A stretch of DNA of 40,843 nucleotides from a virus: UHGV virus genome UHGV-1472163. One strand, written 5' to 3'. The notes under the pieces were generated by a model that did not search any database, had not been told where the DNA came from, and saw only the letters and a program-made list of their open reading frames with translations. The position numbers were made by a program, and so were the translations under genes. The number at the start of each line of letters is the position of its first letter. Positions within the stretch are counted from its first letter, which is position 1. This document shows positions 2,708 to 40,667 of the stretch, piece by piece.

Positions 2708-3291
2708 TTCACCTCCTGCGGCGGTTCCGGTAGCCGCATCCAGTCGGTTACATTACGACTCTGTGTTTCGAAAAATTCATCACCATTGCGGACAATATCG
2801 AAAAACTCTCCGTCTCGATATTGCGCATAAAGAACGAATGCGCCATCACATAAAATAATTACGTGCTGACCATCATCTGGCATTCGCTCACTACAGCTTA
2901 TCCAACCATCCGGAGTTACCGGATAGTTGCCCGACAGCTCGTTCAACTTGTAAGTTTGGCTTACAGGTTCGGCTTCCAGTTCTGCAATGCGCTTCTCTGC
3001 AGCTTCCAGCTCAACGCGCAGCCTCCCAACCGTTAGCGCAATATCCTCGTTCTCCTGGTCGCGGCGTTTGATGTATTGCTGGTTTCTTTCCCGTTCATCC
3101 AGCAGTGCCAGCACGGTTTCTGGTCCGGTCAGAAATTTGAAGGCGTTGAGCGCATCAATATCCACACCGTAATCTTTAAGTTCCTGTTCACTTAACAAAT
3201 CATCATCAACTGGCAACATTAGCAGGCGATCCATTGCCGGAATTGCACGCTCTGCCTCCTCACGCAGTGCCTGATAGTCAATCTTGCTCAC
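2704..3291 (-). CDS. Hypothetical ea-region protein with DUF551-like C-terminal domain
   Basis: 195-aa ORF; C-terminal CSERMPDDGQHVIIL...DGEFFD pattern resembles DUF551 as I recall it; not searched. Confidence 0.6.
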   Translation of the reverse strand: MSKIDYQALREEAERAIPAMDRLLMLPVDDDLLSEQELKDYGVDIDALNAFKFLTGPETVLALLDERERNQQYIKRRDQENEDIALTVGRLRVELEAAEKRIAELEAEPVSQTYKLNELSGNYPVTPDGWISCSERMPDDGQHVIILCDGAFVLYAQYRDGEFFDIVRNGDEFFETQSRNVTDWMRLPEPPQEVK

Positions 3292-8737: not shown

Positions 8738-9388
8738 TTATGGAAGGTTTGCTAGTTTTGCATCGACAACTACGCCGATGATTTTGCAGTTTCCGTTGAT
8801 CTCGATCATCGGATATTGTGGGTTAAGTGGTTTTAGAAACTTCCTGCCTGCATCAATAACTAACTTCTTGAAAGTTGCCTCGTTTTCTCCTTCGAGCTTT
8901 GCAACTACCAGTTTCCCGTTACGCGGCTCTACTTCAGGATCGACGAGTATTATCATTCCTTCAGGGATACTGAGACCGGCCGGAGCCGTCATTGAGTCTC
9001 CCTTCACGTCCAACCAAAACGAATCTTCTGAACAGTCTACGGTTGTATCGTACCAGTTATCTATTGCACGCTTATGATATGGTTCTACAGCTTCCATCCA
9101 GCATCCTGCGCTCACCCAGCTAATCAGAGGGTATGACCCTCTTGGATCATGCCTACTGTGATAGGCAATGTTTGAAAGACTTTCCTCTCCTTTCATCAGA
9201 TAGTCAGGGGAACACTTCAACGCATTAGCCAGGGCGAGAAGATTCTCTCCATTTGGCTCTGTCTCAGAGCGTTCCCACTGAGATATGGCAACATTAGACA
9301 CGCCGACCATCTTTCCAAGTGCGGCCTGCCTGATCTTGAGTTCTTTTCTCCGAGCGCGAATGCGCTCTCCCATCAATTGAGTTTTCAT
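8738..9388 (-). CDS. c2: Prophage repressor, P22 C2 type (HTH plus S24 LexA-like peptidase domain)
   Basis: 216-aa ORF closely matching P22 C2 as recalled (MKTQLMGERIRARRK...GVVVDAKLANLP); divergent from cro across operator region. Confidence 0.9.
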   Translation of the reverse strand: MKTQLMGERIRARRKELKIRQAALGKMVGVSNVAISQWERSETEPNGENLLALANALKCSPDYLMKGEESLSNIAYHSRHDPRGSYPLISWVSAGCWMEAVEPYHKRAIDNWYDTTVDCSEDSFWLDVKGDSMTAPAGLSIPEGMIILVDPEVEPRNGKLVVAKLEGENEATFKKLVIDAGRKFLKPLNPQYPMIEINGNCKIIGVVVDAKLANLP

Positions 9389-14556: not shown

Positions 14557-14725
14557 TCCATCCCAATCCATTCAATACCAGAAAGAAAGCGTCGAGCGGG
14601 CTTTAACGTGCGCTAACTGCGGTCAGAAGCTGCATGTGCTGGAAGTTCACGTGTGTGAGCACTGCTGCGCAGAACTGATGAGCGATCCGAATAGCTCAAT
14701 GTACGAGGAAGAAGACGATGAATGA
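14549..14725 (+). CDS. ninF: NinF protein
   Basis: Track ORF 14492..14725 trimmed to [44 protein letters not shown]..., matching lambda NinF as recalled. Confidence 0.7.
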   Translation: MLSPSQSIQYQKESVERALTCANCGQKLHVLEVHVCEHCCAELMSDPNSSMYEEEDDE

Positions 14726-15440
14726 GTTAATAAATGGCAATGCCATCAAAATGACAAGCATTGAAATCGCTGAGTTGGTGGGAAGTCGTCATGACAAGGT
14801 GAAACAATCTATTGAACGACTGGCGGCTCGAGGTGTGATCCGAAATCCCCCAATGGTGGTTTTCGAAAAAATCAATAACTTAGGATTACTTCGTGGCGTA
14901 GAGGCTTACGTTTTTGAGGGCGAACAAGGTAAGCGAGACAGTATTGTCGTTGTAGCCCAGTTGTCGCCGGAATTCACCGCTCGTCTTGTTGATCGTTGGC
15001 GAGAGCTTGAAGAAACTACGGTTAATATCCCCAAAACGCTACCGGAAGCGTTGCGCCTTGCTGCTGATCTTGCTGAGAAGAAAATGCAACTGGAAAACCA
15101 GCTCGCAATTGCCGCACCTAAAGTTGAGTTTGCCGATCGCGTTGGCGAGGCCAGCGGAATTTTGATTGGAAACTTTGCAAAGGTTGTTGGAATTGGTCCA
15201 AACAAACTGTTTGCGTGGATGCGCGATCACAAAATCCTTATTGCTTCAGGTTCCCGGCGCAATGTGCCAATGCAGGAATATATGGATCGCGGCTATTTCA
15301 CAGTGAAAGAAACAGCGGTCAACACAAATCACGGAATACAGATATCGTTCACCACAAAAATCACCGGGCGTGGTCAACAGTGGCTGACCAGAAAGCTGCT
15401 CGATAACGGAATGCTGAAAGTAACAGGGGAGGCTGCTTAA
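14718..15440 (+). CDS. Phage regulatory/antirepressor protein (Rha-like N-terminus, KilAC-like C-terminus)
   Basis: 240-aa ORF; domain pattern recognised by eye, not searched. Confidence 0.6.
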   Translation: MNELINGNAIKMTSIEIAELVGSRHDKVKQSIERLAARGVIRNPPMVVFEKINNLGLLRGVEAYVFEGEQGKRDSIVVVAQLSPEFTARLVDRWRELEETTVNIPKTLPEALRLAADLAEKKMQLENQLAIAAPKVEFADRVGEASGILIGNFAKVVGIGPNKLFAWMRDHKILIASGSRRNVPMQEYMDRGYFTVKETAVNTNHGIQISFTTKITGRGQQWLTRKLLDNGMLKVTGEAA

Positions 15441-15730
15441 TGGCTAATCTACGCAAAGAAGCACGCGGCAGAGAATGCCAGGTACGTATTTACGGCGTAT
15501 GCAATGGCAATCCTGAAACTACAGTTCTGGCACATTACCGGATGGCTGGAATTTGCGGAACGGGAATGAAGCCTGACGACCTGATCGGCGCATGGGCTTG
15601 TAGCGCGTGTCACGATGAAATCGACCGACGCACCTATAATCTCGACAACAAAGACGCCAGACTTTACCACCTCGAAGGCGTGATCAGGACGCAGGCGATA
15701 CTGCTGAAGGAGGGGAAGATTAAGTCATGA
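15440..15730 (+). CDS. ybcO: YbcO-like protein (DUF1364; putative nuclease)
   Basis: 96-aa ORF MANLRKEARGRECQVRIYGVCNGNPETTVLAHY...ACSACHDEIDRR, similar to E. coli DLP12 YbcO as recalled. Confidence 0.65.
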   Translation: MANLRKEARGRECQVRIYGVCNGNPETTVLAHYRMAGICGTGMKPDDLIGAWACSACHDEIDRRTYNLDNKDARLYHLEGVIRTQAILLKEGKIKS

Positions 15731-16251
15731 ACGGTAAAAGATATCCAACACAAAAAGAAATCAATGAATTGTATGAATATAATAGCGAAACAGGTTTGTT
15801 TATATACAAGAGAAGAGAAAGTGTAAGAGAGTGCTGGAATTCAACATATGCCGGTAAGATTGCTGGTTCTATAGATGAAAAAGGATACGTTCGTATATCT
15901 GTAAATAAAAAAGTTTGTCGAGCTCATAGAATCGCATGGATATCCTTTTATGGAAGTGAACCTGATGGGGAAATTGATCACATAAATGGAATTAAAAGCG
16001 ATAACAGAATATGCAATTTGCGCGTTGTAGATGATAAACAGAACTCAAGGAACAGAAAAAAGCCTATTAATAATCGCTCTGGAGTAATGGGGGTTGCCTA
16101 CTATAAGAAGAATAAAAAGTGGGGCGCATATATAAACAGTGATAATAAAAAGATATTTCTTGGATTATACGATGACATATCTCTAGCCGTTAATGCCAGA
16201 AAATTGGCGGAATCACGATTGGGGTATCACCATAATCATGGGAGAGGATAA
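15727..16251 (+). CDS. HNH endonuclease (homing-endonuclease-like)
   Basis: 174-aa ORF in an AT-rich segment; HNH motif region (EIDHINGIKSDNRICNLRVV..QN) and AP2-like C-terminus (GVAYYKKNKKWGAYI). Confidence 0.7.
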   Translation: MNGKRYPTQKEINELYEYNSETGLFIYKRRESVRECWNSTYAGKIAGSIDEKGYVRISVNKKVCRAHRIAWISFYGSEPDGEIDHINGIKSDNRICNLRVVDDKQNSRNRKKPINNRSGVMGVAYYKKNKKWGAYINSDNKKIFLGLYDDISLAVNARKLAESRLGYHHNHGRG

Positions 16252-32103: not shown

Positions 32104-34211
32104 GTTTACCCGAAGGCTTTGTTCTCGATAATCAGCCTGATAACTCACAGCTTCCTGATGGCTTTGTGCTTGATGCCCAACCAGAACAGCAGCAATCTCC
32201 TTTGGTTTCACCAGAGGAAAATTCCAGACAGGAAAATGTTGTTAATAATGCTAACGGCTTCGACCGTTTTATGTATGGCGTTCTCAGTGGATTGATGGAT
32301 GTTGGTAAAGGTGTTGGCCTGTTTCAGGATATGACACCAGAAGAGCAAGCCGCAATTCAGTCTCTACAGCAGAAGTTAGCGGCAAAACCATCAACCGCAC
32401 AAGATGTTGGTGAGTTTGTTGGACAAGCCGCGCCATTTGTTAGTGGTGGTGGGATTATTTCTCAGGTTCCGAAAGGGGCGGCAAGGCTGGCTGCCGCCGC
32501 AGGGCTTGGTGCTGGAGAAGGGGCTATTGTAGCCAATGGAACAAATAGCGATGTTGCTTCCGGCGCTGCTATTGGCGCTGTGGCTGGCCCTGTAGCCGAG
32601 ATTGTTGGTCCAGCGCTTGGGAAGATTGCAGGAAAAATTAAAAATAGTGCCGGGGATATTTATCGCTCATCCGTAGGGATGGGGAGTAAATCATCTAAAG
32701 CAACGTTAAAGAAAGCTGCTGGCGCAATGGATAATAAATTTATTGGCGGGCAACGAGCTATTCAAGGTTTCGCCGATGAAGTTAATCCTGATTTTAACGC
32801 GATAAATGCCATCCGTGAGCTAGAACTGGAAAATTATGCCACTCCAGGAATGATCTCTAATAATCCTGCTGTCAGGGCTCTTGATAATGCAGTGGCAAGT
32901 CTTCCTGGAACAGAGATTAGTGAGGCGCATAAGCGCTTTATTACTGAATTAGGAAGAAAAGCTGATGAAATGATAACTTCATTTGGGGGAAACCTTGATA
33001 AGCAACTGGTTTCTGACAGGCTTGCAGATAATTTTGATAAAACCATTTCATCATTACAAAATCAGTCAGATAACATCTACAACAAAATTGCCGAAAAGGT
33101 TCCAGTAAGAGACCGTATTGAGGCAACCAATACATTGAATTTTTTAGAGGATTTTGCTGATGACATAGGTGGAATTGATGAATTATCTCCAATAATGAAG
33201 CGGACATTGAACCGACTTGATCCAAACACCTTGCCAACGTATGGGCGTTTAGATCTCGCCAGAAAGCAGGTTGGGCAAGCTATTGGCAAAGGCTCTGGCC
33301 CATTCAAGGATGAAGAAACAGGTGTTCTTAAAAAGTTATATGCAGCTATAACAGATGACCAACAGGCTGTCGCAGAAAAATATGGCGCAGGGGAGTTATG
33401 GACGCTTGGTAAGGAGTTGGTAAAAAAACGAAAATCCATTGAAGATGATGCCGTAACCGTTTTGGGTAGAAAACTTCAGCAATCAGCAATTCCAAAAGTT
33501 GAAAGTGCCGTTGTTAATATGGCAAAAGGAAACGGTGGTGACTTTAGGCAATTAATGAAGTCAATTCCAAAGGATATGCGGCAGGAAGTTGTGCTCACCT
33601 CAATGAATAAAGCATTTACCAGCTATGCTAAATCACCAGGTCAGCAATTAGGGGTTGATGGATTTGTAAAATGGTATAACGGAATATCACGCAATGGGGC
33701 CAATATGAAGACTCTCCGTGATGCTATTGGCACAGATGCATCAAAGCGCCTTGATACGATTTATCAAGCAGCCAAGGCTATGAATAGACTCAATACTGGT
33801 AAGCAGTATGCTAGCAGCCTTGTGGATCAGCAAGTTAATAACTTTCTGAAGGAAAAGGGTAGTCTAGCAAAAATTTATGGAATAGCCTCAAAAGCTGCTG
33901 CGGCGGAAGGTATTACAAGCTTATCTGGTCTTCCTGGTGTAGGTGCAACAGGGGTGATAACGTCCGCATTGATGTCAGGGAAAACAAGCAGGATAAAGGC
34001 TGCTGATGCTCTACTGTCTTCTCCTGAGTTTAAATCAATGCTATTTCGCCTGCAAAACGCACCAGTAGACAGAGCAGAAGTGAGACGCGCAATAGAAAGG
34101 AAACTGATGCAATCTGGGGCATTTAAGAGATGGGAGAAAACCCTATCAACAGATGAAGCAAAAACCATTGCCCGCACGGGGATTATTACATGGCTCGCTA
34201 GTGACAGTTAG
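32088..34211 (+). CDS. Ejection protein (P22 gp16-like)
   Basis: 707-aa ORF; position-based. Confidence 0.65.
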
Positions 34212-34435
34212 TCAACTTTGGTTATTTTGCCTTCTTTTTCTTGATGAACTTTGCATCCATCATCTTTTGATAGCCAAACTAAAAACTTTAAAACCTTAAA
34301 CACAAGTACGGATACTGTAATGAAAGCACCAATTGCAATTATTGCTAGTGAAATTATTTGCATTGGTGCTTTTAATGCAGGGAAAATAGCGTAAATGATC
34401 GCGAAAACAGTAATTATGAGGAACCATCGCTTCAC
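34208..34435 (-). CDS. Hypothetical small membrane protein (about 75 aa, GTG start)
   Basis: Track ORF 34208..34651 trimmed to GTG after AGGAGG; two hydrophobic helices; sieA-like position but much smaller. Confidence 0.4.
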   Translation of the reverse strand: MKRWFLIITVFAIIYAIFPALKAPMQIISLAIIAIGAFITVSVLVFKVLKFLVWLSKDDGCKVHQEKEGKITKVD

Positions 34436-34465
34436 ACCAACCTCCTTAGTTTTGAGCAGGATACC

Positions 34466-34831
34466 ATGAAAAAAGTTAACATTGGAAACGTACCAAAGAT
34501 GCTCGTTCCGCTCTTTGAGAGCGGTACAATTGTGTTTTGTAGAGACTTTCCAGAATGGCAACGCCTGCATCAAAAACTTGGTGTGGACGTGCAGGACTCG
34601 GATGCCAACGGAGCGTCTCATACAATGAGCAGCGAGAATGGTGTTTTGCATGTGATAGGCGTGTTCAATGGCAAACTATCTACTATTGCCCATGAGTGCG
34701 CTCACATGGCATTCGATATCTGCTCAAGGGTCGGTGTTGATGTTGAACCAGGAAGAGCCAATGAGACTTACTGCTACTTAATGAGCAGGCTTGTTGAGTT
34801 CTGCGAGCGACATATCAAAAAGCCGGAGTGA
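34466..34831 (+). CDS. Hypothetical protein with HExxH zinc-metallopeptidase-like motif
   Basis: 121-aa track ORF containing IAHECAHMAFD with downstream Glu (ANETY). Confidence 0.55.
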   Translation: MKKVNIGNVPKMLVPLFESGTIVFCRDFPEWQRLHQKLGVDVQDSDANGASHTMSSENGVLHVIGVFNGKLSTIAHECAHMAFDICSRVGVDVEPGRANETYCYLMSRLVEFCERHIKKPE

Positions 34832-34844
34832 CCCGGCTTGATTA

Positions 34845-35024
34845 TTACTTTTTGCTGTCTGGAGTTCGCTTATCCAATACCCAGCCATGACCTGGCTTTG
34901 TTGTTGGCGGAAGCCTTTCGTTGTCCTTGACGGTGGCAAAATTGTCTTTCTTACCGCCGCGTGGGCCAACTTCTTGGTATATTCCGCCGTTTTTTCCTGT
35001 GTTTTCACCTGGTTTTTTCGCCAT
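34845..35024 (-). CDS. YjzC-like small protein (59 aa)
   Basis: Track ORF trimmed to MAKKPGENTGKNGGIYQEVGPRGGKKDNFATVKDNERLPPTTKPGHGW...; pattern resembles YjzC-family small proteins as recalled. Confidence 0.45.
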   Translation of the reverse strand: MAKKPGENTGKNGGIYQEVGPRGGKKDNFATVKDNERLPPTTKPGHGWVLDKRTPDSKK

Positions 35025-35109
35025 GATATACCTCAACATACACCCGTTATTGGGCGATTAAATATTGATCTCATTTTATGAGTAGTCAATATGGTCCAAA
35101 AAAGGCAAA

Positions 35110-35137
35110 AATTAACCCACCGTCAGGTGGGTTTTTT
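35110..35137. terminator. Putative bidirectional Rho-independent terminator
   Basis: Stem CCCACC/GGTGGG followed by T6 on + strand; overlaps stop of the Mnt-like gene. Confidence 0.45.
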
Positions 35138-35497
35138 GTTGTCATCACCAAGATATTTCTGCTTATATTCCTCTGAAAGAGGAATTGATCTTTCAACCAT
35201 GCTAATAAGTTTATCTACTTGTTTTTTCTGTTTTTCTATGATTTCTAAAAGTTGAGGTATAAGTTTTTCATGCTCGATTTTATCATATTTTCTGTTTATC
35301 GCATCTAGTTGTTCTTTAAACTGCTGAACGATAGGACCATCCTCCGGCCCAAAATCACGACAAACACGAATCGCCAACTCAAGCAGAGTGACAATCTCAG
35401 CATTCATAGAACGATTATTTTGTTTTGATGACGCTTCAATTATTTTTTTTAATTCAACAGGAAGCCTAATCCGAAGTTGAGGGTCTTCTCTACTCAT
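35123..35497 (-). CDS. Mnt/Arc-family ribbon-helix-helix repressor with extended C-terminal coiled coil
   Basis: 124-aa ORF; N-terminus LRIRLPVELKKIIEASSKQNNRSMNAEIVTLLELAI fits RHH pattern; divergent from arc-like gene across palindromic operators. Confidence 0.65.
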   Translation of the reverse strand: MSREDPQLRIRLPVELKKIIEASSKQNNRSMNAEIVTLLELAIRVCRDFGPEDGPIVQQFKEQLDAINRKYDKIEHEKLIPQLLEIIEKQKKQVDKLISMVERSIPLSEEYKQKYLGDDNKKPT

Positions 35498-35537
35498 ACC
35501 ATTAGTCCAAACAGGAAAAATTCACAATAAGTAAATT

Positions 35538-35605
35538 ATGCCCCACGGTGGGGTTGACTTCAATGACGCACGGTGTGACAATTTCAATTGCCCCACAGTG
35601 GGGCT
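35538..35605. promoter_or_regulatory. immI-like control region: two 13-bp palindromic operators flanking a rightward promoter
   Basis: CCCCACGGTGGGG (about 35540-35552) and CCCCACAGTGGGG (about 35590-35602); TTGACT-17-GACAAT with TG extension between them; AAGGAG SD before arc-like ATG. Confidence 0.55.
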
Positions 35606-35619
35606 ATTTAAGGAGTGGA

Positions 35620-35787
35620 GATGGAAAAAGCAAAAGACATGTATCAACGCAAGGTTCGTTTCCCAGAGGATGTAAGGAAGGCGATTGAAAGAAATGGAGA
35701 AAAAGAGTGTCGACAGTTCAACACGGAACTTATTTATCAATTGAGAAAAGTGTACGGACTGATTGGAGAGAAGAATGCTAGGACATA
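35620..35787 (+). CDS. arc: Arc-like ribbon-helix-helix regulator (55 aa)
   Basis: Hand-translated ORF MEKAKDMYQRKVRFPEDVRKAIERNGEKECRQFNTELIYQLRKVYGLIGEKNART; RHH pattern; first gene of rightward immI-like operon. Confidence 0.6.
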
Positions 35788-35861
35788 AAAATAGTGAAGC
35801 CCGGCAGTGCGCGAACACAAACCGGGCCTCTATGTCAGTAACCGTATGCAAGGAAACTAAC

Positions 35862-36488
35862 ATGAATATTGTAGCAAAATCAGATTACAACTTCCACGGA
35901 GTTGAGTTGGTGCCCACCCGTGATATGCATGGTGTTTGGTTTACATCATCTAATATTGCATCTGCACTTAAATACGCAAATAGTCGTGCAGTAACAATGA
36001 TTTATAACAAGTATAGCGATGAGTTTAGCGCCGGAATGACTCAGGTACTCGAAGTGAGTACCTCAGGAAATTATCGCAAAAAAGTGCGAGTTTTCTCACT
36101 ACGCGGTGCCCACCTAATCGCGATGTTTGCTCGCACTCCGGTAGCCAAAGAGTTCCGCCGCTGGGTGCTGGATATTTTGGATCGGCAGGCAGAATGCTCA
36201 CCGATTGCAAAACAGTTTACTGACGAAGAACTGGTTAATCTCTGCTACTTACAATTGTGGATGGAGAAGAGTCAACAAATGTGCAAACACATCTACCCAG
36301 GAATGAAGCAAATTTGTTCTGAGCTTTCAGGAAGGATTTACGATATCGCATATGAGACTCGCTATATGTCAGAAGAAACCAAGAAATCACTTCTTCGTGA
36401 AATGAAGAATCTTGATACCAACAATTTTGTCGTAAAGAACGCTCAGCCAATGCTGGCAAAACTGCGCGGCGAGGAATGGATTCATTGA
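35862..36488 (+). CDS. ant: Antirepressor with Bro-N/KilA-N-type domain
   Basis: 208-aa ORF from Met34 of track ORF (MNIVAKSDYNFHGVELV...); AAGGAA SD; position after arc as in P22 immI. Confidence 0.7.
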   Translation: MNIVAKSDYNFHGVELVPTRDMHGVWFTSSNIASALKYANSRAVTMIYNKYSDEFSAGMTQVLEVSTSGNYRKKVRVFSLRGAHLIAMFARTPVAKEFRRWVLDILDRQAECSPIAKQFTDEELVNLCYLQLWMEKSQQMCKHIYPGMKQICSELSGRIYDIAYETRYMSEETKKSLLREMKNLDTNNFVVKNAQPMLAKLRGEEWIH

Positions 36489-36576
36489 TTGGTGCGCCGG
36501 ACGGCGCAAAAAGAAAACCGCCAGTGTGCTGCTGGCGGCCTATGTCACACCCTTACTACCACATAAGGAATGCCTA

Positions 36577-37305
36577 ATGACTTTTAAGAATGTAGCAAAC
36601 ATCGGATCCGTTGTCACGGATAAAACCATTGACAGCCAGCGCCTGCTTGAGATGGTAAATCAGGCTCGTAGACAGTGCGGTGAGCCGGAGGTTCGTAATA
36701 ACAAATTCATCGAGAAAATTGAAGATGAATTGGATGGAGAGCACTACACAAAAAGTGTAGTGCAAAAAGCGAACAAAACTTCGATGGTTATCATTGAGAT
36801 GTCAATCAAGCAAGCATTGCGAGTTGCCGCTCGCGAGTCAAAAGCCGTTCGCCGCTCACTGGTAGACCAACTTGAAAGTATGCAAGAAGCGCACATTAAA
36901 AGCGGTAAATCAGCGAGTGGACTTGTTGAGTATCGTCAAGCGCGAACATTGAAAATGACGGTTGAAGCTGTTACCAATCTGTTCGATCTGATGCCAAATC
37001 TTGCGCCTGAGGCAAAGCAGACAGCGGCAGCAAGTATAATCAACCCGCTTGTTGGTTTTAATGCAATACCTCTTCCGGCAATAGAAGAGCATTACTACTC
37101 AGCAGGGGAGGTTGCAGAGCAGCTTGGAGTAACGGCCAACAAGATTGGTCGCATTGCTAACGCAAACAACCTCAAAACTGAGCAGTACGGGAAGTTCTTC
37201 CTGGATAAATCGGCGCATTCCAGCAAACAGGTAGAGGCGTTCCGTTACAATTCTGAAGGCGTTAAAGCACTACAACACCTGCTACATGGCTCAAATGTGG
37301 CGTAA
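36577..37305 (+). CDS. Second antirepressor-like protein (KilAC-like C-terminal domain)
   Basis: 242-aa ORF from Met18 of track ORF (MTFKNVANIGS...); C-terminus YYSAGEVAEQLGVTANKIGRIANANNL... KilAC-like by eye. Confidence 0.55.
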   Translation: MTFKNVANIGSVVTDKTIDSQRLLEMVNQARRQCGEPEVRNNKFIEKIEDELDGEHYTKSVVQKANKTSMVIIEMSIKQALRVAARESKAVRRSLVDQLESMQEAHIKSGKSASGLVEYRQARTLKMTVEAVTNLFDLMPNLAPEAKQTAAASIINPLVGFNAIPLPAIEEHYYSAGEVAEQLGVTANKIGRIANANNLKTEQYGKFFLDKSAHSSKQVEAFRYNSEGVKALQHLLHGSNVA

Positions 37306-37321
37306 CATTTTATAATGAAAA

Positions 37322-37350
37322 CTAAACCCGCTTAATCGCGGGTTTTTTCT
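37322..37350. terminator. Bidirectional Rho-independent terminator
   Basis: AACCCGC-TTAAT-CGCGGGTT hairpin followed by T6; overlaps the convergent stop of the Mnt-like gene. Confidence 0.5.
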
Positions 37351-37589
37351 TTCCTTAGAATTTCAGCCGCAACTTCTTTTACTCGTTCCGAGATTAATGA
37401 GGCCAGCCTCTCTTCTTCATCACGATACCCGCTTACAGGTGATGGTTTGGAGAGTGATTCTTCCATCGTAGCCACAATTTCGGAATTGATAGACCTGTTA
37501 TTCATTTTTGCACGCTGCTTAATCTTAGCGTGCAACTCGTGTGTAAGCCTCAAGTGGAACTGCGCCTCATCGTATTTGCTGTACATCAT
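37332..37589 (-). CDS. mnt: Mnt-like repressor (P22 Mnt type)
   Basis: 85-aa ORF (C-terminal part of track ORF 37332..37985): NNRSINSEIVATMEESLSKPSPVSGYRDEEERLA matches P22 Mnt NGRSMNSELLQIVQDALSKPSPVTGYRNDAERLA as recalled. Confidence 0.7.
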   Translation of the reverse strand: MMYSKYDEAQFHLRLTHELHAKIKQRAKMNNRSINSEIVATMEESLSKPSPVSGYRDEEERLASLISERVKEVAAEILRKEKTRD

Positions 37590-37721
37590 CAATGCCTCAC
37601 CAAATGGGTGGAATGGCATCGTAAAACCTACTGTACAAATCAACAATCGTACCGTTTCGGTATGTAATAAATGCCAACCGTAGCCATGCTGCGGCGATTC
37701 CTTGTATCTGGAGCAAATTAA

Positions 37722-40667
37722 ATGACAGACATTACAGCCAATGTTGTAGTGAGTATGCCTTCGCAACTCTTCACTATGGCGCGTTCTTTTAAAGCCGTAG
37801 CTAATGGCAAAATTTATATCGGTAAAATTGACACTGACCCGGTAAATCCTGAAAACCAGATTCAGGTCTATGTTGAGAACGAAGATGGTTCTCACGTTCC
37901 TGTTTCGCAACCAATCATCATTAACGCCGCTGGATATCCGGTATATAACGGACAGATTGCCAAGTTCGTAACCGTGCAAGGCCATTCTATGGCTGTTTAT
38001 GATGCGTATGGTACACAGCAGTTCTATTTTCCGAATGTGCTGAAGTATGATCCTGATCAGTTACGGCAGCAATTAGAAGACCCAGATGGAGCGAATAAAT
38101 ACCCAAAACTTCAGATAGCAAGATGGAGAGACAGTTATGATGTAAGAGGTTGGGGGGCTATTGGTGATGGTGTTCATGATGATACATCAGCTCTATCAGA
38201 ATTACTTTCTGTTGCAACAGGTGGTGAAAAGATAGATGGGCGAGGGCTTACTTTTAAAGTATCAACTCTTCCAGATGTCAGTCGATTTAAAAATGCTCGT
38301 TTTTTATTTGAGAGAATACCGGGTCAGCCTCTTTTTTATGCTTCTGAAGATTTTATCCAGGGAGAGTTATTTAAAATTACAGATACACCGTGGTACAACG
38401 CCTGGACGCAGGATAAAACGTTTGTATATGACAATGTCATCTATGCGCCTTTTATGGCTGGAGACCGCCATGGTGTAAATAACCTCCATGTTGCATGGGT
38501 TCGCTCAGGAGATGACGGGAAGACCTGGACAACGCCGGAATGGCTTACAGATTTACATGAAAACTATCCCACAGTTAACTATCACTGCATGAGTATGGGG
38601 GTTGTCAGAAATCGCCTTTTTGCTGTAATTGAGACGCGGACCGTGAGCGGAAATAAACTGCAGGTTGCAGAGTTGTGGGATCGCCCAATGAGTCGCAGCC
38701 TTCGCGTTTATGGTGGTATAACGAAAGCAGCAAATCAGCAAGTCGCTTATATTCGCATTACTGATCACGGATTATTTGCTGGTGATTTTGTCAACTTCTC
38801 AAACTCTGGTGTTACAGGTGTTACCGGGAATATGACGGTGACTACTGTTATTGATAAAAATACTTTTACAGTTACGACGCAAAATACCCAGGATGTGGAT
38901 CAGAATAACGAGGGTAGATACTGGAGTTTTGGTACATCATTTCACTCGTCACCATGGAGAAAAACCAGTCTTGGAACTATTCCTTCTTTTGTTGACGGAA
39001 GCACTCCTGTTACTGAGATTCACAGTTTTGCGACGATTAGCGATAACAGTTTTGCTGTTGGCTACCATAATGGTGATATTGGCCCACGCGAGCTTGGGAT
39101 ACTCTATTTCTCTGATGCTTTCGGTTCTCCTGGTAGCTTTGTTCGCAGACGCATACCTGCAGAATATGAGGCGAATGCATCTGAGCCATGTGTAAAATAT
39201 TATGATGGCATTCTGTATCTGACGACCAGGGGGACATTAAGTACTCAACCCGGTAGTTCATTGCACAGAAGCTCTGATTTAGGTACATCATGGAATTCTC
39301 TTCGCTTCCCAAATAATGTTCATCACTCAAACCTTCCTTTTGCCAAAGTTGGCGATGAGCTGATTATTTTTGGCAGTGAGCGCGCATTTGGTGAGTGGGA
39401 AGGAGGAGAACCTGATAACCGTTATGCAGGAAATTATCCAAGAACATTTATGACCAGAGTTAACGTCAATGAGTGGAGTCTGGATAATGTAGAGTGGGTT
39501 AATGTTACTGATCAGATTTATCAGGGCGGAATAGTTAACTCTGCGGTTGGTGTTGGTTCAGTTTGTATCAAAGACAACTGGCTGTACTACATTTTCGGTG
39601 GGGAAGACTTTCTAAACCCATGGAGCATAGGGGATAACAACAGAAAATATCCTTATGTTCACGATGGTCACCCGGCTGATTTGTATTGTTTCAGGGTGAA
39701 AATTAAACAGGAAGAATTTGTTTCAAGGGATTTTGTCTACGGAGCCACTCCTAACAGAACGCTTCCTACTTTTATGTCGACGTCAGGCGTGAGGACGGTT
39801 CCTGTACCCGTTGATTTCACAGATGATGTTGCCGTCCAGTCACTGACTGTCCATGCAGGTACATCAGGACAAGTTCGCGCGGAAGTCAAACTTGAGGGTA
39901 ATTACGCCATTATTGCGAAGAAAGTACCGTCTGATGATGTTACCGCTCAGAGATTAATCGTTAGCGGCGGTGAAACAACGTCTTCAGCAGATGGTGCAAT
40001 GATAACGTTGCATGGTTCCGGAAGCAGTACTCCACGTCGCGCGGTATATAACGCACTCGAACATCTTTTTGAGAACGGAGATGTTAAACCTTATCTTGAT
40101 AATGTAAATGCTCTTGGTGGTCCGGGAAACAGGTTCTCGACAGTTTATCTTGGCTCCAATCCTGTGGTTACCAGTGACGGAACATTAAAGACAGAGCCGG
40201 TCTCTCCTGACGAAGAATTGCTGGATGCCTGGGGTGACGTCAGGTATATCGCTTATAAATGGCTGAACGCTGTCGCTATAAAGGGGGAAGAAGGGGCGAG
40301 GATACATCATGGTGTAATCGCGCAGCAACTTCGTGATGTTCTTATTTCTCACGGACTCATGGAAGAAGAAAGCACAACATGCCGCTATGCCTTTCTTTGC
40401 TATGACGATTATCCCGCAGTATATGATGACGTCATTACTGGCCAAAGGGAAATGCCGCTGACTGATAATGACGGGAGCATCATTGTTGATGAGGATGATA
40501 ATCCAGTGATGGTAATGGAAGACATCATTGAGCGCGTTGAAATAACGCCAGCAGGATCTAGATGGGGGGTCAGACCTGATCTCTTATTCTATATCGAGGC
40601 GGCATGGCAGCGCAGAGAAATAGAAAGAATAAAAGCTAGGTTAGACTTAATAGAAGGGAAGCACTAA
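37722..40667 (+). CDS. Tailspike: P22-type head-binding N-terminus fused to endosialidase-like domain with C-terminal chaperone domain
   Basis: 981-aa ORF; N-terminal about 125 aa match P22 gp9 head-binding domain as recalled; two sialidase Asp-box motifs ([16 protein letters not shown]); C-terminus with SDGTLK Ser-Lys region resembling S74 chaperone domain. Confidence 0.85.

Follow-up and report, generated by a model that had tools for sequence, protein, structure and literature searches.

Antirepressor modules set when a prophage, and sometimes its neighbours, exits lysogeny without RecA-mediated repressor cleavage. The textbook example is immI of phage P22, whose Arc and Mnt proteins are the reference repressors with a ribbon-helix-helix (RHH) fold. 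The UHGV virus genome UHGV-1472163 (the window, 40,843 nucleotides in full) carries a region of 2.6 kb which resembles immI and holds two antirepressor-like genes next to two Mnt-type genes, raising the question of whether these genes form one regulatory circuit or several. The initial annotation, made from the sequence alone, treated 35123-37589 as a single immI-like module; all the genes and elements it listed are present, but the region splits into two units. With a probability of about 0.7, we consider the region to be the ‘ant moron’ of a P22-like (CUS-3-like) prophage, made up of two control units of the immI type. Unit A (35114-37345) is probably a self-contained, portable antirepressor cassette, with Unit B (37324-37721) being the leftover of a second, P22-type immI.

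The window represents a P22-like temperate phage or prophage, encoding an integrase, a RecT protein, replication protein O, NinB and antiterminator Q, as well as a repressor of the C2/CI type that has an S24 peptidase domain (8738-9388). The module is located between the DNA-ejection genes on one side and a tailspike gene with a P22 head-binding domain on the other. Both flanks are homologous to P22 and HK620, and in sister loci the adjoining genes carry P22_gp7, Inj_translocase and Phage_P22_gp16. According to Villafane et al., who named this slot between genes 16 and 9 the "ant moron", it changes rapidly, sixteen genomes showing ten different types, and degraded genes are frequent in it (PMC2629481). 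In the window, all five open reading frames (ORFs) of the module are intact (Table 1). The slot and the logic of P22 immI are both found here, in agreement with the initial proposal: a leftward RHH repressor of the Mnt type, which has a putative oligomerisation tail at its C-terminus, is followed, in the rightward direction, by a small Arc-like first gene of the ant operon and then by a homologue of Ant with a P22_AR_C domain.

The protein in the mnt position, RHH124, has 124 amino acids (aa), and the RHH fold predicted for it was recovered in a structure model, in Pfam and in structural matches. It matches Pfam Arc with an E-value of 3.1e-7 (30.6 bits, cut-off 20.4), and a profile of its family identifies AmrZ (2.2e-10), Mnt (2.4e-7) and Arc (4.7e-5) in the PDB, while the best PDB matches by Foldseek are AmrZ, Arc and CopG. 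In the AlphaFold2 (AF2) model, the two RHH helices span residues 14-26 and 31-49, with a predicted local distance difference test (pLDDT) score of 85-90, followed by one long predicted helix at residues 55-116 with a pLDDT of about 60-85. This single helix is what the model offers for the long coiled-coil tail claimed initially, and any oligomerisation through it would be putative. Compared to Mnt, the tail is longer and unrelated in sequence. RHH124 fills the mnt slot exactly, as positions 35081-35139, containing its last codons and the terminator, are 88-92% identical to the mnt 3' end and terminator in P22, ST160 and SE1.

The divergent gene arc55 opens the ant operon. Its size and position fit the role of Arc, while its sequence signal is weak: the match to Pfam Arc (0.0011, 19.2 bits) is slightly under the cut-off of 20.4, and the match to phrog_228 ‘Arc-like repressor’ has an E-value of 1.3e-5. 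With a profile of seven homologues, P22 Arc is the best PDB match (E 0.003), colinear over residues 1-42. Over the RHH core, arc55 is 30% identical to the N-terminus of RHH124. A recently solved ‘Arc family DNA-binding protein’ of 79 aa (PDB 9pio chain G) is among the matches of RHH124, arc55 and the second Mnt-type protein of the region, Mnt85.

Between RHH124 and arc55, the two perfect 13-bp palindromes reported initially, O1 and O3, bracket a TTGACT-17-GACAAT promoter, and they are the only exact matches to their pattern in the whole 40.8-kb window. A degenerate copy, O2, lies in the spacer of this promoter, bringing the number of sites from two to three. The CAC-N-GTG cores of the three sites are centred exactly 25 bp apart. 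The motif CACNGTG has 8 copies in the window, and three copies within 60 bp were obtained in none of 2000 shuffles. Hairpin terminators or repetitive extragenic palindromic (REP)-like repeats were considered for the palindromes and rejected, as a 1-nt centre permits no stable loop and the sites lie inside promoters. The arrangement follows P22, where, in the sequence read directly, the mnt operator AGGTCCACGGTGGACCT is found 6 bp downstream of the -10 hexamer and Oarc in the spacer of Pant. Because of these positions relative to Pant, O2 and O3 are the positional counterparts of Oarc and Omnt; the Pant-like promoter of the window has the same position relative to the operators as P22 Pant, and the core CCAC-G-GTGG is common to the palindromes of unit A and the P22 mnt operator. 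Unlike P22, which has two unrelated operators, the window has three related ones. The leftward promoter differs as well. In P22, Pmnt and Pant fully overlap, the -35 of one lying over the -10 of the other, whereas the promoter scan of unit A gave no leftward candidate that fully overlaps the Pant-like promoter. The only candidate is back-to-back with it and overlaps it by 2 bp, limited to the -35 hexamers.

These elements are conserved in related cassettes from Salmonella, Citrobacter, Klebsiella and E. coli, where homologues of 50-90% identity occur. In these four, O1, O2, O3 and both promoters are kept, O1 being identical, the leftward promoter having the form TTGATG...CATAAT, and O3 having variants (CCTCAC/TCTCAC-G-GTGGGG) at the same place. 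O2 is invariant in every compared cassette with this RHH N-terminus. The elements are also conserved in TL-2011b, a relative among the Shiga toxin (Stx) phages with 75% identity, where O1 is degenerate. In the same phage (locus L003, about 3075-3095), an extra G follows codon 9 of the RHH gene (MSREDPQLR, then out of frame), and the annotated gp40 starts downstream; this copy is either decaying or the result of a sequencing error.

The operon continues with Ant1, for which the Bro-N type given initially is confirmed: Pfam identifies Bro-N (PF02498) at residues 23-105 (1.8e-10, 41.7 bits, cut-off 25.6) and P22_AR_C (5.3e-13). Ant1 also matches phrog_245 ‘anti-repressor Ant’ (4.6e-52) and shares 29% identity with the P22 Ant C-terminus (P22 Ant residues 206-274), while the N-domain of P22 Ant is P22_AR_N instead of Bro-N. 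The primary work as cited in PMC2629481 describes P22 sar as starting at an extended -10 promoter within the first ant codons and ending at a hairpin in the arc-ant spacer. A unit of the same kind, sar1, is predicted antisense to the ribosome-binding site and start codon of Ant1. Its promoter element has the form and position of P22 Psar. The predicted RNA folds into two hairpins (-33.8 kcal/mol, z -5.5) with the architecture of P22 sar (z -5.6), and its terminator stem is kept across 8 loci with compensatory changes.

In contrast to P22 immI, the window adds a second ant-like gene with its own predicted antisense unit, sar2, in addition to the second Mnt unit downstream. Before the second ant gene of 6 cassettes, some of which have a second gene of a different type, an element TGCTA(C/A)A(T/A)T is found together with a hairpin and a T run. 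The sar elements recur before both ant genes in other cassettes, with few compensatory changes in the stems. Since the sar2 terminator has no T run on the plus strand, ant1 and ant2 are probably co-transcribed. It is thus predicted from sequence that sar-type antisense units, which were not listed by the earlier reader, guard both ant genes.

The product of this second gene, Ant2, has two domains and belongs to an uncharacterised family. It matches phrog_1726 ‘anti-repressor’ with an E-value of 7.3e-101, and its model has a pLDDT of 69. By Foldseek, it resembles viral proteins labelled antirepressor or KilAC, with E-values of about 1e-9 to 1e-7 (among them 3e-9), and in a fold search of the PDB the C-terminal domain resembles winged-helix DNA-binding domains (RacA, BldC) with non-significant E-values. 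The label ‘KilAC type’ used initially for this protein is not demonstrated, the likeness being one of fold only. As a KilAC protein by sequence it was rejected, since no match was obtained in Pfam or NCBIfam, including ANT/KilAC (PF03374), and profile comparison with P22 Ant and with the window's own ANT protein, encoded in the nin region, gave nothing (hhalign probability 0.5% for the latter). The name antirepressor-like is reasonable for Ant2. Its family has more than 2100 homologues in Enterobacterales, with many invariant residues; the names given in the source, where there are any, are ‘hypothetical protein’, and a Pfam domain is present in 0 of the 120 listed.

Natural exchanges separate the region into its parts. 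Phage JEP4 and approximately 635 of 5426 complete E. coli genomes contain the right half, from about 35785 (sar1 region, Ant1, sar2, Ant2, Mnt85 and tailspike leader), with 92-99% identity in JEP4 and in prophages of the E. coli 55989 type. The left cassette of these relatives is different: 55989 pairs an RHH protein of 106 aa with an Arc protein of 57 aa and has sites of the ACCAA-G-TTGGT type, and JEP4 has a C2-type repressor. Both also have an extra 73-aa ORF between Ant2 and Mnt85, which is absent in the window. The left cassette of the window is rare in the same collection, as only 2 genomes carry it (99% identity), between the lambda-like tail genes L and K and with a P22-type Ant; the whole module is found in none of the complete RefSeq E. 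coli genomes. Exact copies of RHH124 are indexed in 643 blocks of an assembly collection, and the four places that were read have the same neighbours and different tailspikes.

Among the related cassettes, the gene order is RHH, 55-aa Arc-like, Bro-N Ant and a gene of about 250 aa in all but one place, a Salmonella locus (L087) with a single 261-aa Bro-N gene after the Arc-like gene. Prophages of lambda-like, other siphovirus-type and myovirus-type kinds also carry the cassette among their tail genes; RHH124 and arc55 occur there and Mnt85 does not. Two E. coli lambda-like prophages (L106 and L108) have an RHH124-arc55 block of 98-99% identity before a single full-length P22-type Ant (P22_AR_N and P22_AR_C, 306 aa), with tail genes L and K on either side. 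The controller block is therefore combined with different antirepressor cargoes. A scan of species-representative genomes with the RHH124 alignment returned distant RHH domains only, mostly from Alphaproteobacteria, which were useless for operator comparison.

Exchanges are also seen within the controller block. Locus L098 keeps the RHH N-terminus and CCCCAC-type operators, with a different C-terminal tail. In locus L096, the tail is kept, while the RHH N-terminus, the Arc-like protein and the operators (AGTCAA-T-TTGACT) are different, with the same 13-bp geometry and position. Based on these two swaps, the DNA-binding domain, the operators and the Arc partner behave as one specificity block. 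The DNA-reading residues of reference RHH proteins are Q9/N11/R13 in Arc and H6/N8/R10 in Mnt. By analogy to these, the reading residues were assigned as the alternate beta-strand positions preceding the R-x-P motif. For the long RHH protein and its Arc-like partner, respectively, they are Q-R-R and Q-K-R in the window, Q-K-R and Q-K-R in the Salmonella locus L100, and K-T-R and K-T-R in L096. These equal or nearly equal sets across three specificity types suggest that the paired RHH proteins of one cassette may read the same operator family. L100 (locus 2895-3000) also contains TGGACC-ACTAC-GGTCCA downstream of the promoter, in which the two P22 mnt operator half-sites are everted around a centre of 5 bp, next to CAC-N-GTG-type sites.

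The most likely mechanism for unit A follows the logic of P22, in which a Mnt-type maintenance repressor, an Arc-type shut-off repressor and antisense brakes act on the antirepressors. In the lysogen, RHH124 would be made from the weak leftward promoter and serve as the Mnt analogue, probably as a tetramer held by its long helical tail. Bound to O3, over the transcription start, and to O1, it would shut the Pant-like promoter, and at O1 it would also limit its own promoter. When the Pant-like promoter fires, after infection or upon loss of RHH124, a transcript of arc55, ant1 and ant2 would be made, and arc55, the putative Arc analogue, would bind the same operator family, most likely at O2, and end the burst. 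The sar1 and sar2 RNAs would start within the first codons of ant1 and ant2, pair with the ribosome-binding sites and keep leaky transcripts from being translated. The expected targets of Ant1 and Ant2, which they would bind and inactivate, are repressors of the CI/C2 type encoded by the phage itself or by co-resident prophages.

The same elements could also work as a bistable switch like lambda OR, in which RHH124 (in the role of CI) and arc55 (in the role of Cro) compete for the three operators with opposite orders of affinity and shut off each other's promoter. As a working analogy only, lambda OR likewise has three related palindromic operators (OR1-OR3) about 24 bp apart, and back-to-back divergent promoters (PRM/PR), each driving a repressor gene (CI/Cro). 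In unit A, the operators (24-26 bp apart across cassettes) span both promoters: the spacer of the leftward promoter contains O1 and that of the rightward promoter O2, with O3 lying where rightward transcription would start. The reading residues of the paired proteins match in three independent specificity types, and the two proteins are 30% identical over the RHH core. The proteins of the window are RHH proteins, however, rather than helix-turn-helix proteins, they are unrelated in sequence to those of lambda, and the module controls antirepressors instead of the lytic operon itself. Binding of RHH124 and arc55 to the operators is a prediction and the leftward promoter is a consensus call, while the outer arms of O2 differ from those of O1 and O3, which fits two specificities equally well as one. 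Knight and Sauer reportedly found in 1989 that P22 Arc and Mnt have similar N-termini, yet bind different operators, which also counts against the switch. We regard it as unlikely, though the best of the alternatives. The wider proposal that a portable, all-RHH switch of the lambda OR kind gates two antirepressors, each with its own antisense RNA, and is reprogrammed in specificity by swapping the block of RHH N-terminus, operators and Arc partner independently of the oligomerisation tail, is equally tentative. If it were true, the gated antirepressors could induce co-resident prophages.

The P22-type reading of unit A leaves the second Mnt gene to be placed. As stated initially, a second, canonical Mnt-like gene converges on the ant genes, and terminator hairpins were called on both strands between them. 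Its product, Mnt85, is a homologue of P22 Mnt, matching the structure 1MNT with an E-value of 9.4e-16 over 72 residues (7-78 aligned to 3-74). This alignment covers the SKPSPV(S/T)GYR linker (SKPSPVSGYR in Mnt85) and the following C-terminal helix, which tetramerises Mnt. The match to Pfam Arc is 3.2e-15, and identity is 45% to P22 Mnt, 51% to ST64T/L Mnt and 45-56% across annotated Mnt proteins. The 132-bp intergenic region between Mnt85 and the tailspike gene aligns with the mnt-arc control region of P22 and the mnt-tailspike region of ST64T. By this alignment, unit B keeps the overlapping Pmnt/Pant arrangement of P22, with the -10 hexamer position of Pant decayed to CAAATC.

The candidate operator of Mnt85, TACCGTTTCGGTA, sits exactly at the place of P22 Omnt and of ST64T AAGACCACCGTGGTCTT, and each of its columns aligns with P22 Omnt GGTCCACGGTGGACC and with the palindrome of ST64T AGACCACCGTGGTCT. 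VSe13, E. coli 55989 and Sf101 retain its TACC...GGTA arms. Identity to Salmonella phage VSe13 is 100% over block 37605-37653, compared to 77-90% for the flanking coding DNA, and most of this block is kept in Sf101, which has a mnt-like gene and a tailspike gene and no ant gene. The Mnt85 leader also contains an inverted repeat (37592-37619), which may serve as an operator or form a hairpin in the mRNA. VSe13, 55989 and Sf101 share this repeat, and in ST64T its inner arms are changed on both sides (CACTT...AAGTG); the RNA fold, considered as a hairpin masking the Shine-Dalgarno sequence of Mnt85, is no better than that of shuffles (z -1.45). Searching the rest of the window for copies of this repeat, or of the RHH124-type operator, as possible distant targets returned none beyond chance.

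Unit B resembles the ‘mnt-only’ ant morons of ST64T, phage L and Sf101, in which a leftward Mnt homologue, a region of about 130 bp to the tailspike and a palindrome at the Omnt position are also found. According to PMC8022706, phage L retains a mnt-like gene without arc or ant. In unit B, arc and ant would similarly have been lost, leaving a decayed Pant-type promoter region facing the tailspike gene. Unlike these morons, unit B lies downstream of a complete antirepressor cassette, its palindrome is TACCG-TTT-CGGTA versus GACCAC-C-GTGGTC, and its reading residues are Q-H-R versus Q-N-R.

Table 1. Features of the ant moron region and the adjacent tailspike gene, with window positions.
Feature	Position	Strand	Basis or remarks
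Bidirectional terminator hairpin downstream of RHH124	35114..35133	both	terminator-like calls on each strand; RHH124 stop codon in loop
RHH124, N-terminal ribbon-helix-helix and long C-terminal helix	35123..35497	-	Pfam Arc, PDB profile, model, Foldseek
Predicted leftward RHH124 promoter TTGAAG-17-CATAAT	35535..35563	-	consensus scan, 9/12 matches; O1 in spacer
O1 CCCCACGGTGGGG, perfect 13-bp palindrome	35541..35553		in leftward-promoter spacer
Rightward Pant-like promoter TTGACT-17-GACAAT, extended -10 TG	35554..35582	+	consensus; conserved across cassettes
O2 ACGCACGGTGTGA, degenerate operator copy	35566..35578		in rightward-promoter spacer, P22 Oarc position
O3 CCCCACAGTGGGG, perfect 13-bp palindrome	35591..35603		8 bp downstream of -10 hexamer, P22 Omnt position
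arc55, small Arc-like RHH protein	35621..35788	+	Pfam Arc (sub-threshold), phrog_228, profile vs PDB
sar1, predicted antisense unit vs Ant1	35786..35876	-	transcript of about 75 nt, then T run
sar1 extended -10 TGCTACAAT	35876-35868	-	
sar1 terminator hairpin, T run	35796-35830		
Ant1, Bro-N N-domain and P22 Ant C-terminal domain	35862..36488	+	Pfam, phrog_245
sar2, predicted antisense unit vs Ant2 ribosome-binding site and start codon	36505..36597	-	promoter and terminator calls
sar2 extended -10 TGCTACATT	36597-36589	-	
sar2 terminator hairpin, T run	36515-36541		
Ant2, second antirepressor-like protein, two domains	36577..37305	+	phrog_1726
Bidirectional terminator common to Ant2 and Mnt85	37324..37345	both	terminator-like calls on each strand; Mnt85 stop codon in loop
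Mnt85 (85 aa), P22 Mnt homologue incl. C-terminal tetramerisation region	37332..37589	-	1MNT, Pfam Arc
Inverted repeat ATGCC-TCACC-N5-GGTGG-AAT-GGCAT in Mnt85 leader	37592..37619		conserved; overlaps Shine-Dalgarno
Predicted Pmnt85 TTGTTG-17-TACGAT	37618..37646	-	relaxed scan; aligned with P22 Pmnt TTGAGA-17-TATCAT
Candidate Mnt85 operator TACCGTTTCGGTA, arms TACCG/CGGTA	37650..37662		palindrome call; Omnt position
Tailspike gene	37722..40667	+	Pfam Head_binding and endosialidase domains; downstream of the decayed Pant-type region of unit B

These data do not point to Mnt85 as an additional regulator of the antirepressor promoter. In an alternative view, the region is one integrated circuit with Mnt85 as the true maintenance repressor of the Pant-like promoter, the role of Mnt in P22, and RHH124 is auxiliary or unrelated, acting for instance on leftward genes or superinfection functions. 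Of the proteins in the region, Mnt85 is indeed closest to P22 Mnt (1MNT at 9.4e-16 versus 2.4e-7 for the RHH124 family profile), and the ant moron of CUS-3, with two mnt genes beside one ant gene, makes several Mnt proteins on one promoter conceivable. However, Mnt85 and its upstream sequence stay constant while the left cassette is exchanged for the C2-type repressor of JEP4 or the other RHH proteins and operators of 55989. The upstream sequence has no second occurrence in the window, and the reading residues of Mnt85 are unlike those of RHH124 and arc55. In addition, the siphovirus- and myovirus-type prophage cassettes manage without Mnt85, and Mnt85-like genes occur without any ant gene in Sf101 and ST64T. 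We therefore give the integrated circuit little credence. Because Mnt85 is constant while the left cassette is swapped, it is read as the regulator of its own residual mnt/Pmnt/Omnt unit and not of the Pant-like promoter 2 kb away. Most likely, judging from sequence comparison, Mnt85 would regulate only the local region, acting on its own expression and on whatever transcription enters the tailspike gene in the rightward direction.

That the whole region is a decaying, largely non-functional remnant, with palindromes and small ORFs persisting by descent and not by selection, is very improbable: the flux and gene degradation known for ant morons (PMC2629481), the frameshifted RHH gene and degenerate O1 of TL-2011b and the decayed Pant-type -10 of unit B would agree with it, but they are set against five intact ORFs, the exact RHH124 in 643 assembly-collection blocks, the many invariant residues of the large Ant2 family, and operators, promoter hexamers and sar elements that are conserved across genera and unrelated phage backbones.

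Several points weigh against the two-unit reading itself or its details. The evidence is wholly computational: it shows the genes, their folds and relatives, the repeats with their conservation and the positional match to P22, whereas the pairing of proteins with sites, promoter activity, the sar RNAs and the targets of Ant1 and Ant2 are inferred. The consensus scan found 6 promoter-like sites in the region versus 5.3 expected by chance; because this count alone is not significant, it is position and conservation that support the promoter calls. A good -35 is absent from both sar promoters, the fold of sar2 is not significant (z -1.85), and an Rfam scan of 34000-38200 with E-values up to 1 found no curated family, giving only sub-threshold chance matches (RyhB and isrK on the terminator, SymR on the sar1 region). 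The assignment of arc55 to Arc is weak, given the values above. RHH124 and arc55 always travel together, so that comparison cannot assign a protein to a site, and the spacing of O2 and O3, which varies from 24 to 26 bp among cassettes, disfavours strictly phased cooperative binding. Since most of the compared cassettes are close relatives, constraint on the promoter or a recent common origin may account for part of the O2 invariance. The operator assigned to Mnt85 is a matter of positional homology, and its inner arm bases differ between phages. Finally, the antirepressor function suggested for the Ant2 family is taken from labels and fold.

The tailspike gene of CUS-3, encoding the same endosialidase, is 98.9% identical in nucleotides to that of the window, yet the ant morons differ. 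Like the window, CUS-3 has more than one Mnt-type gene beside an antirepressor gene; unlike the window, its two mnt genes are in tandem and divergent from a single ant gene, and the homology between both begins only in the tailspike leader. No recognisable arc gene is present in CUS-3 (PMC2629481). While the kind of module and the variability of the locus are already documented (PMC2629481, PMC8022706), our literature search found no paper on the cassette, its operators or the doubled sar units. The operator family, the doubled sar design and the spread of the cassette into the tail regions of unrelated phages appear to be undescribed in the literature searched.

The accepted picture of immI is extended by this locus and not changed. 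It provides natural pairs of Mnt-type proteins and operators that share the 13-bp geometry and differ in sequence, a series useful for deriving the rules of RHH recognition. It also gives evidence for the repressor-operator-Arc block as a mobile controller of varied antirepressors, found even in the tail gene clusters of unrelated phages, and presents two antirepressor genes in tandem, each of which would have its own antisense brake.

Outside the module, a few other genes were examined. The Rha/KilAC protein noted initially in the nin region (14718-15440) was recovered with ANT/KilAC at 9.1e-33 and Phage_pRha at 27.1 bits, and just downstream lies a gene for an HNH endonuclease (15727-16251; HNH_3, 1e-16). 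The tailspike, which in the K1-specific phage CUS-3 has its close counterpart, is a P22 head-binding domain fused to a complete endosialidase (beta-propeller, beta-barrel, tail-spike domain and S74 chaperone); in sister loci, pectate-lyase-type or other tailspikes accompany the same ant moron. On the other side of the module, a 147-aa ORF (34208-34651, minus strand) has a phage-family match (phrog_7294) limited to its C-terminal 75 residues. As a 75-aa gene is called at this place in sister loci, the real gene is probably the short form.

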